A stretch of 64,000 bases of DNA, taken from NCBI GenBank assembly GCA_963664295.1, contig OY760935.1, positions 480,001 to 544,000 of the forward strand. Direction: 5' to 3'. The position numbers and the translations under genes were made by a program. Below the pieces are notes generated by a model. That model searched no databases. It saw nothing but the letters and a program-made list of their open reading frames with translations, and was not told the origin of the DNA. This document shows, piece after piece, positions 2,175 through 8,902 of this stretch. The number at the start of each line of letters is the position of its first letter. Positions within the stretch are counted from its first letter, which is position 1. The DNA comes from Candidatus Altimarinota bacterium (GTDB lineage Bacteria > Patescibacteriota > Gracilibacteria > CAIRYL01 > GCA-016699755).

Positions 2175-2480
2175 TTAGTTAATAGAATCCAAAAGTTCAT
2201 CAGCCTTTGCACTATCTTCAAGCGCCTGCTGATTATCAAGTTCTTTTAGTTTTTTGCTTCTTATTTTCTTTAAATCATCTAAAAAGCCTTTTTTTACTTT
2301 AAATAGCTCTTGCATATTTTGCACAATCAGAGCCAAAGCTCCTTTTTGCGCCTTTTCGTCCATCTTGGAAATATTTTTAACTATGATTTTTTTAAGGCCT
2401 TCGTCTAAGTCAAAAACTCCCAAATATTCATAAATCAATTCAGTTATTTCAATATCTACATTTTTGTTTTTTATTTGCAT
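2175..2480 (-). CDS. Hypothetical protein
   Basis: 101-aa ORF, same strand as and adjacent to 1577-2158. Confidence 0.6.
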   Translation of the reverse strand: MQIKNKNVDIEITELIYEYLGVFDLDEGLKKIIVKNISKMDEKAQKGALALIVQNMQELFKVKKGFLDDLKKIRSKKLKELDNQQALEDSAKADELLDSIN

Positions 2481-2594
2481 ATTTTTTATTTATTTTTCTA
2501 TTTATTTTAGCATTTTTATAAATTTTTTGCAAGGGGGTGAGGCGACCGCTTTATTAGGCGTGAGGTCGCAGAGCCGAGTCAAGTGCGCAAATCA

Positions 2595-2635
2595 ATTTAA
2601 AAAATATTCATGCTTTGCATGAATCTTTTTTAAAT
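2595..2635 (-). terminator. Hairpin directly 3' of the tRNA-Pro CCA
   Basis: atttaaaaaatattcatgc-ttt-gcatgaatcttttttaaat, 19-bp arms with 1 mismatch. Confidence 0.6.
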
Positions 2636-2711
2636 GGTCGGGGCAGCAGGACTCGAACCTGCGACCTCACGGTCCCAAACCGCGCACTCTAGCCAACTGA
2701 GCTATGCCCCG
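2635..2711 (-). tRNA. tRNA-Pro(TGG)
   Basis: CGGGGCATAGCTCAGTTGGCTAGAGTGCGCGGTTTGGGACCGTGAGGTCGCAGGTTCGAGTCCTGCTGCCCCGACCA; full cloverleaf, loop TT-TGG-GA, encoded CCA. Confidence 0.97.
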
Positions 2712-2717
2712 ATGATG

Positions 2718-2966
2718 TTAAAAATCTTTACTGTCCTCCAAAATCTTTTTTAAAAACTCTCTGCCTTTACCTGATTTTAAAAACTTTTCTCTTTTCATTG
2801 CCTCTCCTCTGCTACTTACCTCCTCACAATATACCAATTTCCAAGGGCCTTTCCCAGTTGTCCAACGATTACTACCATTATTGTGAATATCAATGCGTCG
2901 ATCAATATCTTTTGTAATACCTTTATAAAGAATTCCTGCCTGATTTTTAATAACGTAAACGAACAT
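2718..2966 (-). CDS. Small GIY-YIG nuclease (SLX1-like/UPF0213 type), copy 1
   Basis: FVYVI...LYKGIT.D..RR...HN.G....T..KGPWKLVY.E......A..REKFLKSGKGR pattern. Confidence 0.9.
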   Translation of the reverse strand: MFVYVIKNQAGILYKGITKDIDRRIDIHNNGSNRWTTGKGPWKLVYCEEVSSRGEAMKREKFLKSGKGREFLKKILEDSKDF

Positions 2967-2974
2967 AAAAAGTA

Positions 2975-3032
2975 AACCTGCGACCTCATCCGCCTAAGGC
3001 GGACGCACTCTAGCCAACTGAGCTATGCCCCG
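2975..3032 (-). pseudogene. 5' tRNA-Pro fragment with palindrome-substituted anticodon arm
   Basis: Identical to the tRNA from its 5' end to GCAGGTT, except 13 nt of the anticodon arm are replaced by TCCGCCTTAGGCGGA (2989-3003); lacks the 3' T-stem and acceptor strand. Confidence 0.9.
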
Positions 3033-3038
3033 ATGATG

Positions 3039-3287
3039 TTAAAAATCTTTACTGTCCTCCAAAATCTTTTTTAAAAACTCTCTGCCTTTACCTGATTTTA
3101 AAAACTTTTCTCTTTTCATTGCCTCTCCTCTGCTACTTACCTCCTCACAATATACCAATTTCCAAGGGCCTTTCCCAGTTGTCCAACGATTACTACCATT
3201 ATTGTGAATATCAATGCGTCGATCAATATCTTTTGTAATACCTTTATAAAGAATTCCTGCCTGATTTTTAATAACGTAAACGAACAT
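3039..3287 (-). CDS. Small GIY-YIG nuclease, copy 2 (identical to copy 1)
   Basis: Same 82-aa translation as 2718-2966. Confidence 0.9.
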   Translation of the reverse strand: MFVYVIKNQAGILYKGITKDIDRRIDIHNNGSNRWTTGKGPWKLVYCEEVSSRGEAMKREKFLKSGKGREFLKKILEDSKDF

Positions 3288-3295
3288 AAAAAGTA

Positions 3296-3353
3296 AACCT
3301 GCGACCTCATCCGCCTAAGGCGGACGCACTCTAGCCAACTGAGCTATGCCCCG
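3296..3353 (-). pseudogene. 5' tRNA-Pro fragment with palindrome, copy 2
   Basis: Identical to 2975-3032; palindrome at 3310-3324. Confidence 0.9.
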
Positions 3354-3376
3354 ATGATGTTAAAAATCTTTACAAG

Positions 3377-3426
3377 CTCATCCACCACCTAAGGCGGACG
3401 CATTTTACCCAACCAAGCTATGCCCG
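3377..3426 (-). pseudogene. Degenerate third tRNA-Pro fragment
   Basis: ctcatccaccacctaaggcggacgcattttacccaaccaagctatgcccg aligns to the other fragments with several substitutions and indels. Confidence 0.75.
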
Positions 3427-3446
3427 AATTTTAAACGAGCTTTCCT

Positions 3447-3474
3447 ATTCTAATTAAAAATTAAAATAAATCAA
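3447..3474 (-). promoter_or_regulatory. Putative sigma70 promoter for the tRNA-Pro/GIY-YIG array
   Basis: TTGATT-16 nt-TAGAAT followed by AGGAAAGCT; similar AGAATAGG precedes tRNA-Arg (about 8921-8928) and rpsP (about 22061-22068). Confidence 0.5.
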
Positions 3475-3698
3475 TATTTTTATTGCAAAATCATCATTGT
3501 TCAAAAAATGTATTCAATAAATTCAATCATAATAACATTAAAAATAAACATTTTTTACTTACAGAATAAAATTTTTATACATATTATTCATTTCTATTAA
3601 AAGCTATTTATGAATTATGAAATCTATTTAATTTTCAGGTTTGACAGTAATATTTATTTGATTTAAAAAGTAAGTATATGTATAAAAAAATTTAATCA

Positions 3699-4844
3699 AT
3701 GCCTGTTTTAACAAAAAAGACCCTTGGTCTTTTCGAGAGGTGGCTGGATTTTTTACTAACTGCGAATAATAATTCTGCGAATAAAGTGGTTTTAATAGAC
3801 TTTTTCTTAAAAGAATTTACCAAAAACACTAAAGAGTTTTATCGTTTTTTGTTTTATCTGGAAAATATTTTAACAAGCAAAAAACAGAGTCACATTGCGA
3901 CTAGAGATAATCTGGCAACAAAGCATATTAATATTATTTCTCCGCTTAGTGATCGTTTTAATTTTTATGAAGAAAAATGTAAGTTGGACGATATCTGTTT
4001 TAAAATTTTAGAACCTAAAAAATACAAAAAACTTTCCAGAGAGGTTTTGAGGTATAAAAAAAACTCAAAAAAAATAATTAAACAAGGTTCAAATATTTTA
4101 AACAATCTTTTGTTGAATAAAAATTATGAATTTATTCTTAGAGGTCGTTATAAAAACATTTATAGCATCTATCAAAAACTACAAAAAAAGCAAAAAAAGA
4201 AAATAAATAGTCTTAGTGATGTTTTTGCTTTTAGGATTATTCTTAAAAACAATAATCCTCAGGCTTGTTATCAAATACTCAGCCTTCTGCATGATAATTT
4301 TAATGTTTTGTCTAAAAAATTTAAGGACTACATCAATATTCCTAAAATTAATGGCTATCAAAGTATTCACACTAGCTTAAAAGACCTAATACCTAACCTT
4401 GATTTACTTATTGAAGTTCAAATCAGAAGTCAAAAAATGCATGATTTTGCTGAAAAAGGTTTGGCTGCACATTGGCTTTATAAACACCAAATAAGCCACT
4501 TTGAATTTCAAAATAAATTTTTTCCTGCCCATAGAGCTGAGGACATGGTTTACTTTTTTTCTTTTGAGGGTGATCTTTTTAAAATGGAAAAAGGTGTTAA
4601 AATTATAGACTTTGCTTATAATATACATACAAGCATAGGCAACAAGGCAAAATCTGCAATTGTAAATGGTAATATTAAAAATATTGATTATGAAATTAAA
4701 GAGGGAGATAAGGTAAAAATTCTTAAATCTAGTTTTGATAGGGTAAAAATTAAGTGGCTGGAATACACAAGTAATAAAAACACTCGCAAAAAAATAATTT
4801 ATGCTACAAAAAAATATGGAAACAACCTACAAGCAACTAATTAA
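3699..4844 (+). CDS. RelA/SpoT-family (p)ppGpp synthetase + TGS, lacking an intact HD hydrolase and C-terminal ZFD/ACT
   Basis: GRYKNIYSIYQK, DVFAFRII, KDYINIPKINGYQSIHT, EVQIRSQKMHDFAEKGLAAHWLYK; TGS IDFAYNIHTSIGNKAKSAIVNG. Confidence 0.88.
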   Translation: MPVLTKKTLGLFERWLDFLLTANNNSANKVVLIDFFLKEFTKNTKEFYRFLFYLENILTSKKQSHIATRDNLATKHINIISPLSDRFNFYEEKCKLDDICFKILEPKKYKKLSREVLRYKKNSKKIIKQGSNILNNLLLNKNYEFILRGRYKNIYSIYQKLQKKQKKKINSLSDVFAFRIILKNNNPQACYQILSLLHDNFNVLSKKFKDYINIPKINGYQSIHTSLKDLIPNLDLLIEVQIRSQKMHDFAEKGLAAHWLYKHQISHFEFQNKFFPAHRAEDMVYFFSFEGDLFKMEKGVKIIDFAYNIHTSIGNKAKSAIVNGNIKNIDYEIKEGDKVKILKSSFDRVKIKWLEYTSNKNTRKKIIYATKKYGNNLQATN

Positions 4845-6375
4845 AAATATGGGTGAAGCTGCCTGGCTTGGTAATATAAATGGAAAAACTACCTTTGCCA
4901 ATACTGCATTTTATAAATTGCTTGATATCAAAAAAGAGACTTTAAATAAAAAAAATATTTTTGATTTCTTAGAATTAAAAAATAAAGGGGTAAAATCTTG
5001 TCATGAGGCTGTTTTATTAAGAAAAAACAAACAAAAAATTCCTATTTATTTACACAATATTAAATTAGATGATGATTGGTGTATAAAAATAGCTACTGAT
5101 TTACGAAAAATAAAAAAACAAGAGTCTGTTTACAAAAAATTGATTGAAAATATGCATGAGGGCGTGTGGATGGGTGATGAAAAAAACAGAACTATTTACG
5201 CCAATCCCCGCTTCTGCTCTATGCTTGATTATTCTTTTGAAGAAATGGCTGGTAAAGACTTTTTTTCTTTTTGGGACAAAAAAAGCATTGAAAAAATTAA
5301 AAAATTAAATAAAACCAAACACAAAAAAGGCTTAAGCACTGCATGCGAAGGAATTTTGCTTTCCAAAAAAAGAGAAATGCCAGTATTTTTAAGCGCCACT
5401 CCTCTGTGTAGCGGTGGTTTTATTGGTATTATTACTGATTTAAGTGAGCTAAAAAAGAAAGAAAAAAGCGAAAAAATGCTCTCAAAAGCAATTAAATATT
5501 CAACTGATGCAATTATTGTCTTCAATGACAAAAGAAAAGTTCTTATTTGGAATAAGGGTGCAAAAACAATGCTTGGTTATAAAGAATCAGAAATAATCAA
5601 CAAAGATATAAAAACAATAATCCCCTTACAAAAGCTAAGATTAATGTTGAAAAATTGCGAAGGTCTACAGAATCTGGAAATCGAAGTAAAGCATAAAAAT
5701 GGAAACAAAATTAAAATTGCTACTACTTTTACTCCTATTTTTAACAAAAAAAACGAAAATCATGACAATGAAGATAATTATTTAATTATTGCCAGAGATA
5801 TTACTACTCAAAGAAGCCTTGAAGAAGAACTCGATATTAAACATCAAAAAATAAAAGAGGTCTATGGCGATCTTGGCAATATTAAGCGCCAAACTGACTA
5901 TATGTTTGAGCTTATTGATCTTTGTAATGAAAATCATGACAAAAAAACAATAGCTGATTTCATTGTGAGTTCTATTGCCATGTTAACCAAAATTGATGCT
6001 TGCGTTTTTAGAATTCATGAGCCTGGAAAAGGTACTCTTGAATTACTTTCTTCTTTTGGAGTTGGTGCTGATTGGGCTGGTAAATCTACCATTAAACTAA
6101 AAAACAGCCTTTTAGAAAGAGCTTACAAAAAAAACTTTCCTTTAAAAATTATTGATATTGGCAAAGAACTTCAGTATCAATCAAAACATTTGGCAAAAAA
6201 AAATAATTTATATTCTTTACTTTTAGTTCCTATTCAGTTTCAGGGTCAATTAATTGGCAGTTTGTCGCTTTATGCAAGTCCGGAGAAAAAAATTAGTATC
6301 TTTGAAAATGATTTTATTGAAAAATACAGCAAGCTCATCAATATGATTGTCTATCACATGGTTTATTTGAGCTAA
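4816..6375 (+). CDS. PAS-PAS-PAS + coiled coil + GAF sensor with no recognisable output domain (start 4801 or 4816)
   Basis: Three PAS S-boxes (LIKNMGEA..FANTAF; LIENMHEG..YANPRFCSMLDY; STDAII..WNKGAKTMLGY..ARDIT); GAF end SLLLVPIQFQGQLIGSLSLY; no H-box, GGDEF or HATPase. Confidence 0.85.
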   Translation: METTYKQLIKNMGEAAWLGNINGKTTFANTAFYKLLDIKKETLNKKNIFDFLELKNKGVKSCHEAVLLRKNKQKIPIYLHNIKLDDDWCIKIATDLRKIKKQESVYKKLIENMHEGVWMGDEKNRTIYANPRFCSMLDYSFEEMAGKDFFSFWDKKSIEKIKKLNKTKHKKGLSTACEGILLSKKREMPVFLSATPLCSGGFIGIITDLSELKKKEKSEKMLSKAIKYSTDAIIVFNDKRKVLIWNKGAKTMLGYKESEIINKDIKTIIPLQKLRLMLKNCEGLQNLEIEVKHKNGNKIKIATTFTPIFNKKNENHDNEDNYLIIARDITTQRSLEEELDIKHQKIKEVYGDLGNIKRQTDYMFELIDLCNENHDKKTIADFIVSSIAMLTKIDACVFRIHEPGKGTLELLSSFGVGADWAGKSTIKLKNSLLERAYKKNFPLKIIDIGKELQYQSKHLAKKNNLYSLLLVPIQFQGQLIGSLSLYASPEKKISIFENDFIEKYSKLINMIVYHMVYLS

Positions 6376-8609: not shown

Positions 8610-8654
8610 CATTTGAAAAACAATACTGACTTTCATGGTATTGTTTTTTAAATG
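8610..8654 (-). terminator. Hairpin 3' of the duplicated tRNA-Arg 3' end
   Basis: catttgaaaaacaatac...gtattgttttttaaatg, 17-bp arms with 1 mismatch. Confidence 0.55.
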
Positions 8655-8761
8655 GCGTCCCCGACAGGATGCTCATCCGCCTAATCGGCGGATAAGGCCT
8701 TCTGCGCTCGCTCGGAATTTTGCGCAAGCACAAATTCACTCGCTCGCTTGAGTGTCGAACC
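8653..8761 (-). repeat. Duplicated tRNA-Arg 3' end interrupted in the T-loop by an 84-nt palindromic insert
   Basis: tggcgtccccgacaggat (8653-8670) = 8826-8843; tcgaacc resumes at 8755; insert 8671-8754 contains atccgcc-taatc-ggcggat. Confidence 0.8.
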
Positions 8762-8825
8762 AGGTTCTCGGTCCTGTGGAAACATAAAAAACAACCTGAT
8801 GACTGCGTCATCAGAACATTTTTTA

Positions 8826-8902
8826 TGGCGTCCCCGACAGGATTCGAACCTGTGACCTCTGGCTCCGCAAGCCAACGCTCTATCCAGCTAAGCTACGGGG
8901 AC
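8826..8902 (-). tRNA. tRNA-Arg(GCG)
   Basis: GTCCCCGTAGCTTAGCTGGATAGAGCGTTGGCTTGCGGAGCCAGAGGTCACAGGTTCGAATCCTGTCGGGGACGCCA; loop TT-GCG-GA. Confidence 0.95.

Follow-up and report, generated by a model that had tools for sequence, protein, structure and literature searches.

A tandem cassette of small GIY-YIG nuclease genes and hairpin-marked tRNA copies in a putative tRNA-Pro transcription unit, with homologues at bacterial tRNA genes of many types

The tRNA-Pro(TGG) gene of a Candidatus Altimarinota bacterium (Gracilibacteria; assembly GCA_963664295.1) is preceded by a tandem array in which a gene for an 82-residue GIY-YIG nuclease alternates with a broken copy of the tRNA gene that carries a short hairpin. 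The array lies in the 64,000-nucleotide stretch analyzed here, positions 480,001 to 544,000 of contig OY760935.1 (the window), from a genome that is a single contig of 1,215,430 bases with 33.5% G+C. The system is real and widespread and is a member of no family tested; it most likely works as an Ssn-type nuclease-hairpin pair turned tRNA-integrating cassette. The observations behind this reading are the layout, its recurrence at homologous loci, the pattern in which the hairpin replaces stem-loops, the patchy occupancy of loci and the tandem copies.

Read 5' to 3' on the minus strand, from position 3474 to 2635, the array comprises a promoter-like site, a decayed tRNA relic, a 14-nt gene stub, a tRNA fragment, an open reading frame (ORF), a second fragment, an identical ORF, a 6-nt leader and tRNA-Pro(TGG) (Table 1). 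An initial annotation of the sequence had listed these parts in this order, and all are found in their places. The 321-nt period is exact over 2683..3373 and the two 321-bp units are identical, while the relic at the head of the array is the oldest unit, its gene deleted. Each tRNA-Pro fragment ends in the T-loop, 8 nt ahead of the nuclease ATG, as had been described; the description of the fragments as intact holds for this end and fails further in, where TCCGCCTTAGGCGGA substitutes for tRNA nt 30-42 (CGGTTTGGGACCG), the inner part of the anticodon stem-loop. The fragments thus lack an anticodon because a hairpin took the place of the anticodon stem-loop, a replacement that the initial annotation missed. 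The site it proposed as a promoter is present and matches 9 of 12 consensus bases, but five such sites were found against a chance expectation of 4.2, so that the match is at chance level and what speaks for the site is its position. The nuclease is the only product encoded by the unit, in agreement with the earlier report of no integrase or transposase; the one tyrosine recombinase (PF00589) of the genome lies ~675 kb from the array. A search of the array against Rfam returned no family other than tRNA. The idea that the T-arm serves as a Shine-Dalgarno sequence before the ATG was rejected, the anti-Shine-Dalgarno motif CCTCC being missing at the 3' end of the genome's 16S rRNA (G000:C1, near 568,650-568,700).

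The arrangement recurs in other genomes. Loci gathered by a C-terminal peptide pattern (80 from genomes, 80 from metagenomes and one viral, 161 in all) included 153 unique ones, 125 of which had 200-nt flanks, and 397 displaced windows from the same loci served as the control. A same-strand tRNA adjoins the gene at 109/125 loci and an antisense tRNA alone at none (displaced windows, 11/397); a direct repeat of at least 12 nt is found across the gene at 100/125 (9/397), a strict hairpin at 83/125 (5/397) and a hairpin of a wider set at 110/125 (13/397). The flanking repeat derives from the tRNA of its own locus, with a median exact match of 17 nt, versus 8 nt when compared with tRNAs of the same anticodon at other loci and 7 nt with other tRNAs; at least 10 nt of the adjacent tRNA recur across the gene at 100 of the 122 loci that have one. 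Two layouts were seen: a broken copy, the gene and then the intact tRNA, as in the window (layout A, 63 loci), or the intact tRNA, the gene and then the broken copy (layout B, 37 loci). The copies in layout A start within -5..+2 of tRNA nt 1 at 38/63 loci, and those in layout B end within -3..+4 of the tRNA end at 23/37. In layout A the gene stops inside the intact tRNA at 22/63 loci, 12 of them at position 10. A nearly full-length broken copy persists at several loci. The tRNAs concerned represent 16 amino acids and 28 anticodons, plus one probable miscall. The expectation that homologous genes would be associated with tRNA fragments is thus borne out, whereas the form given to it, a T-loop-truncated 5' fragment always ahead of the gene, is not: with the broken copy upstream or downstream, 5' or 3' and very variable in length, neither the T-loop break, the role as 5' untranslated region nor tRNA-Pro as the target is a general rule.

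Layouts A and B are mixed inside nuclease clades, and one and the same hairpin junction occurs in both layouts for tRNA-Arg(ACG) (26-37; L048 in A, five loci in B), tRNA-Asn (33; L005 in A, L013 in B) and tRNA-Pro (30; the window and L001 in A, L004 in B). Among the 80 genome records there are 21 phylum names, with about half of the records from Patescibacteria groups and 21 records without a phylum name. Occupancy is patchy: of 19 tRNA-Pro(TGG) loci in relatives, two hold a whole gene, one a remnant and 16 are empty. Tandem gene copies are present at 15/153 loci. The earlier proposal, a minimal selfish element that targets a tRNA gene, spares one intact tRNA and amplifies in tandem, gains support from these results: the homologous genes have an intact tRNA on one side and part of that tRNA on the other, and most loci of relatives are empty.

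The hairpin is the most conserved non-coding feature of the system. Swap events were defined as hairpin copies anchored to their source by 8 exact bases per side, with a replaced segment of 5-17 nt; 5 of 36 rows were dropped as duplicate loci or hairpin-versus-hairpin comparisons. In all 31 resolvable events the hairpin stood in, end to end and without target duplication, for a segment with complementary ends, which formed at least two pairs in 28/31 and at least three in 19/31. When the halves were re-paired between events (10,000 shuffles), the means were 18.0, 4.8 and 2.3 and the maxima 25, 14 and 9 for any, at least two and at least three pairs. The 18 segments of up to 12 nt, which are not whole tRNA arms, gave 18, 15 and 6 versus shuffle maxima of 16, 9 and 5. 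The target being a paired structure, we infer that the substrate is folded single-stranded DNA. The first base of the replaced segment is C in 23/31 events and the preceding base is a purine in 28/31. Hairpin loops occur in either orientation (TGA 22, TCA 10; TTA 7, TAA 5), and the hairpin lies in the D, anticodon or T arm of the broken copies. This genome holds 10 hairpins, two of them in the array.

The swap rule also holds at the tRNA-Arg(GCG) element of the window, where a longer-looped hairpin stands in place of a 27-nt stem-loop kept in three sister elements. This element lies behind the tRNA (8826-8902), at 8653-8825 on the minus strand; its hairpin is TCCGCC-GATTA-GGCGGA at 8692-8676, and 8670-8653 repeats the final 18 nt of the tRNA, following a non-coding module common to tRNA-Ser(GGA), tRNA-Gln(CTG) and tRNA-Ser(GCT) elsewhere in the genome. 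Two further TCCGCC hairpins (435315 and 759350) replace a short segment within a repeated element of the genome.

By its sequence, the 82-aa protein is a member of the GIY-YIG superfamily: it matches PF01541 as one domain over residues 2-68 (E 2.6e-16; 60.1 bits against a cut-off of 22.6). The catalytic set of these enzymes consists of Tyr, Tyr-x-Gly, Arg, His and a metal-binding Glu, and among 44 homologues Y14, G16, R24, H28 and E60 are invariant and Y4 is nearly so. A search of NCBIfam gave no family at E 0.1. The nearest solved relatives by sequence are YhbQ/UPF0213 and SLX1 (PDB 1ZG2, 1YWL and 7WME; E 2e-14, 1.5e-12 and 3.7e-5), the latter an enzyme that cuts branched DNA, and the nearest named homologues are Patescibacteria records. 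With small GIY-YIG genes of relatives classed by protein motifs (one YhbQ-like protein landed among the others), a tRNA duplication adjoins 0/13 YhbQ-like genes, 0/10 genes flanked by repetitive extragenic palindromes (REPs) and 18/29 others. Branches with Shimodaira-Hasegawa-like approximate likelihood ratio test (SH-aLRT) values of 93, 88 and 98 separate, respectively, the tRNA-linked, YhbQ-like and REP-flanked proteins from the rest. The nuclease tree follows tRNA amino-acid type (37 changes versus 72.2 shuffled), hairpin variant (17 versus 27.7) and layout (21 versus 30.0), with none of 300 shuffles as low in any of the three.

Contig depth supports the two identical units as real copies, the unit standing at about twice its flanks. 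In run X1 depth is 10 and 10.3 in the unique flanks, 19.8 in the repeat unit and 29 in the three-copy 49-mer, a ratio of about 1:2:3; run X3, noisier and from the same sample, gives 11.6 and 20.5 for the flanks, 37.2 for the unit and 51.8 for the 49-mer. These depths come from contigs, none of which spans the whole array, and this, with the 100% identity of the units, would fit an assembly artefact. We consider an artefact very improbable in view of the X1 depths, the tandem copies at the 15 other loci and the recovery of the unit in a second study, where a contig of one 322-nt unit (run X4), differing at two bases, crosses the gene, the fragment and the hairpin. The tandem loci include one in a cultured environmental strain, Sediminibacterium goheungense DSM 28323, where L043 has tRNA-Arg followed by two tandem units. 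A search for sequencing runs that contain the array listed no RNA run.

Table 1. Coordinates of the array and of features around it, in window numbering
Feature	Position	Strand	Remarks
Sigma-70-like promoter candidate, TTGATT-16-TAGAAT	3447..3474	-	~20 nt ahead of the first tRNA relic
Decayed tRNA-Pro 5' relic	3377..3426	-	repeat family D2, 85% to the other fragments; holds a decayed hairpin, 3398-3381
Stub of third unit, 14-nt copy of the nuclease gene 3' end	3360..3373	-	repeat family D3
Broken tRNA-Pro, copy 1	3296..3353	-	tRNA nt 1-29, hairpin, nt 43-56
Hairpin, copy 1, 15 bp, TCCGCC-TTA-GGCGGA	3310..3324	.	in place of the 13-nt anticodon stem-loop
GIY-YIG nuclease gene, copy 1	3039..3287	-	82 aa, single domain
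Broken tRNA-Pro, copy 2	2975..3032	-	identical to copy 1
Hairpin, copy 2, 15 bp	2989..3003	.	in place of the anticodon stem-loop
GIY-YIG nuclease gene, copy 2	2718..2966	-	82 aa, identical to copy 1
49-nt direct repeat (gene end, leader, tRNA nt 1-29)	2683..2731, 3004-3052, 3325-3373	-	repeat family D3; bounds each unit
Intact tRNA-Pro(TGG)	2635..2711	-	the genome's only ARAGORN call with this anticodon
Terminator-like hairpin	2606..2624	.	end of the unit, behind the tRNA
RelA/SpoT-TGS protein	3699-4844	+	divergent neighbour
PAS-GAF sensor protein without output domain	4801-6375	+	divergent neighbour

Several known systems share part of this architecture. Closest is Ssn of Neisseria meningitidis, in which SsnA (cd10448) binds its hairpin and cuts single-stranded DNA only (PMC11893778). 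As in the window, a small single-domain GIY-YIG protein is encoded by a gene flanked by its cognate palindrome, the palindrome variants follow the enzyme, and the authors remark on an architecture like that of insertion sequences and REPs (PMC11893778). At 82 aa and one domain, the window's protein fits the size of Ssn proteins (~100 aa, single domain). However, it lies outside the clade of 10 proteins flanked by SRM-like repeats (SH-aLRT 98), a clade identified by its flanking repeats in a tree without a named SsnA. No SRM-like or GTCATT-type repeat matches window positions 2301-3800, where the palindrome is a different one. The window's gene sits in a duplicated tRNA gene, whereas the word "tRNA" occurs 0 times in the main text of the Ssn paper (PMC11893778); its hairpin replaces target stem-loops, for which the available text of that paper contains no counterpart with NTS, the hairpin of SsnA.

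SegB, a free-standing GIY-YIG homing endonuclease of phages T4 and T6, is likewise encoded beside tRNA genes of many types; its target is a conserved motif in the tRNA T-arm, which it cuts, and besides homing it causes tRNA loci to amplify in tandem (PMC2330249, PMC13096335). A GIY-YIG gene beside a tRNA is just what the homologous loci show. Homing of this type would bias inheritance by cutting empty alleles, such as exist in relatives. However, SegB acts on double-stranded DNA at a 27-bp site in phage tRNA clusters, while the window holds a bare 82-aa domain on a bacterial chromosome with a hairpin-marked copy of one tRNA. Homing enzymes are modular (PMC11893778), and a protein whose Pfam domain takes up residues 2-68 of 82 has no separate region for a long double-stranded site. 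The REP/REPIN palindromes and their RAYT (TnpA-REP) enzymes resemble the window in that short, scattered, G/C-rich palindromes gather around the gene of an enzyme proposed to process single strands (PMC3733652, PMC6006769). Dispersed palindromes clustered at an enzyme gene are found here too, given the hairpins of the array and of the homologous loci. RAYT is an HUH/Y1 enzyme, in contrast to the GIY-YIG enzyme of the window, whose genome has no Y1 gene and a low number of palindromes, tied to tRNA duplicates. Elements that integrate at tRNA genes (prophages, integrative and conjugative elements, islands) are likewise bounded by a complete tRNA copy at one end of the insert and a partial one at the other (10.1101/2022.07.05.498093), but the window's unit is ~320 bp with no integrase inside, either the 5' or the 3' part of the tRNA is duplicated, up to the whole gene, and the partial copy bears hairpins. 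The YhbQ-like genes of the same genomes, with their own clade and no tRNA duplications, are unlike the window's nuclease.

When these features are considered together, we think it probable, with some reserve, that the array is a selfish cassette, with no recombinase of its own, which host recombination carries into the cognate tRNA gene, and that its nuclease, Ssn-like but from a separate clade, acts on single-stranded stem-loops. The mobile unit would be a small circle or fragment made up of a hairpin-marked tRNA copy and the gene, freed by recombination between the flanking tRNA repeats, and it would integrate through one crossover with the matching tRNA gene, in a genome that encodes RecA and ComEC. 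Crossing over 5' of the hairpin would place the broken copy upstream (layout A) and one 3' of it downstream (layout B), so that one good tRNA would always survive; erosion of the broken copy would then lock the layout, and with the window's copy eroded to nt 1-56 only layout A would be viable there. Unequal exchange between the 49-nt repeats could give rise to the tandem copies, and a deletion to the loss of the gene from the oldest unit. The hairpin would serve the nuclease as its cognate single-strand site, in the way that NTS serves SsnA, and this enzyme together with host ligation would paste it over other stem-loops, with cuts at the stem base, mostly between a purine and C. The gene would be expressed from the tRNA promoter. 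Cutting of single-stranded DNA at the hairpin by the 82-aa protein is a prediction made from SsnA.

A bolder form of this proposal, which we regard as possible but put forward only tentatively, is a new class of mobile DNA. Here an 82-aa GIY-YIG hydrolase alone, without an integrase, HUH enzyme or reverse transcriptase, would act on single-stranded DNA to drive a ~320-bp circle of tRNA and gene into the matching tRNA gene and would perform a stem-loop exchange, with excision at the base, insertion of its own 15-nt hairpin and no target duplication; it has no clade-mate in the genome and may also be behind the partial duplications at 20 of the 37 tRNA genes. If the cassette reading is right, few self-encoded mobile cassettes known from bacteria would be as small as this one, which occurs under the phylum names of the genome records, and a large clade of single-domain GIY-YIG proteins, so far uncharacterised, would acquire a function. 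The swap of stem-loop for hairpin, being exact, predicts precisely where cuts should fall and as a DNA rearrangement would be a new reaction, and each enzyme-hairpin pair could serve as a tool for single-stranded DNA, like Ssn. The system would also explain one frequent cause of the false or broken tRNA calls made in Patescibacteria and Bacteroidota, and it bears on the spread of orphan REP-like palindromes, such as the CGTC REPs without a dedicated transposase (PMC3733652). A GIY-YIG gene is among those passed from Patescibacteria to other bacteria (PMC12455944).

Several points weigh against a mobile cassette. The percentages given for the loci, chosen by a C-terminal peptide pattern, hold for that subfamily, and some of the record labels may be wrong. 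Swap events of related lineages are not independent, and the sharing of junctions between layouts A and B could reflect repeated hits at a favoured site. The presence of a strict hairpin in 13/31 genomes with a GIY-YIG profile match and in 0/10 without counts in favour of the cassette; six of these ten, though, are from one genus and several are incomplete. The trees are quick ones of a short protein and have weak support, with 13/97 branches starred. The nuclease tree also follows host phylum (24 changes versus 28.7 over 38 rows; 0/300 shuffles as low), and part of the pattern therefore comes from inheritance with loss. Within one genome the nuclease lineage differs from tRNA to tRNA, so that nothing indicates continuing spread to further tRNAs there, and this is not a within-genome transposon. 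Close relatives are nearly absent from the phage and plasmid collections. GIY-YIG enzymes are hydrolases with no known joining step, so the pasting of hairpins would need host help. Finally, partial copies lie within 800 nt of 20/37 tRNA genes of this genome, 19 of them without a nuclease gene and most without a hairpin.

A phage or plasmid vehicle was considered and rejected: the searches gave one viral locus, 15 phage records at 34-47% identity and three "plasmid" records of more than 4 Mb at 36-37%. Around the single phage match inspected, the annotation lists no tRNA within 1 kb. NZ_AP026896.1, NZ_OL790811.1 and NZ_OL790812.1, filed as plasmids, are 4-5 Mb long and probably chromosomes. 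Neither Y1/RAYT (PF01797) nor reverse transcriptase (RVT_1) was found in the complete genome, and RAYT, reverse transcriptase and a nearby integrase were accordingly rejected as mobilisers. A retro-copy of mature tRNA, in the manner of short interspersed nuclear elements, was set aside as well, with no RVT_1 and a CCA gained in 0/11 informative 3' copies.

Three other explanations of the locus deserve weight. The protein might be a domesticated host enzyme that, like SsnA, limits or steers the recombination of incoming single-stranded DNA at hairpins, sitting at tRNA genes for expression, with the duplications as old, vertically inherited scars. The Neisseria precedent (PMC11893778), ComEC, the invariant catalytic residues, the host phylum signal on the tree and the fact that, from genome to genome within a class, related nucleases keep to one tRNA all fit this explanation. 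We nevertheless find it unlikely, since 16/19 loci in relatives are empty, at least 28 anticodon types are involved, identical tandem copies stand beside decayed units, and 10 hairpins in a genome are few for a restriction-type role. Somewhat less likely is that the gene is a passenger, with a general process duplicating tRNA ends and the hairpin spread by another enzyme or by template switching during replication. Such a process would explain the partial copies that have no gene beside them, and hairpins do occur in other repeats distant from tRNAs; template switching at a stalled stem-loop could, moreover, yield symmetric replacement as well. However, the hairpin variants track nuclease clades and the genome has no RAYT or reverse transcriptase. 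In a comparison of five genomes, covering the top 30 of 36-41 tRNAs in each, three single-contig relatives without an intact tRNA-linked nuclease had partial copies at 0/30 tRNAs each and one with such genes had them at 3/30, a contrast that fits action of the nuclease in trans.

The initial annotation had offered, as an alternative, that the tRNA-like piece acts as RNA with the nuclease, as a guide, antitoxin or decoy. Gene and tRNA are co-oriented at all 109 loci with an adjacent tRNA, probably on one transcript, and the hairpin would fold as RNA. The piece is, however, poorly suited to such a role: it lies upstream or downstream, ranges from ~12 nt to full length and carries its hairpin in any of three arms and in either orientation, while the fragment folds no better than shuffles (z -1.2), Rfam detects tRNA alone, and the related SsnA shows no interaction with RNA (PMC11893778). 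We judge this the least favoured of the three and improbable. The layout is nowhere described in the literature searched, as the initial annotation had supposed; most subscription journals were outside that coverage, and the supplements of PMC11893778 may list such proteins.

Further observations concern the surroundings and the relatives of the array. Just past the terminator, at 2559-2580 of the plus strand, there is an antisense copy of the tRNA-Pro variable loop and T-arm, and similar antisense relics occur in the trailers of other tRNAs of the genome (Val-TAC, Met). The partial tRNA copies elsewhere in the genome are 5' or 3' parts, often in perfect tandem arrays of 80-160 bp (e.g. 419414-419488, 559162-559236, 1034804-1034880 and 97466-97554), and some 5' units hold fold-back copies of the anticodon stem. 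The genome has a second small GIY-YIG gene (G000:C1:622635-622829, minus strand) with GTCATT-type palindromes on its flanks; it belongs to the Ssn-like, SRM-flanked clade. Loci L203, L205, L206 and L207 represent a further GIY-YIG subgroup behind long folded leaders, three of the four lying 110-140 nt beyond a tRNA 3' end. Sister subclades of tRNA-linked nucleases (L167, L168, L195, L197, L199, L200, L204 and L209) carry other hairpins in the broken tRNA copy, of the types TCCCG..CGGGA, GCCGA..TCGGC and composite.

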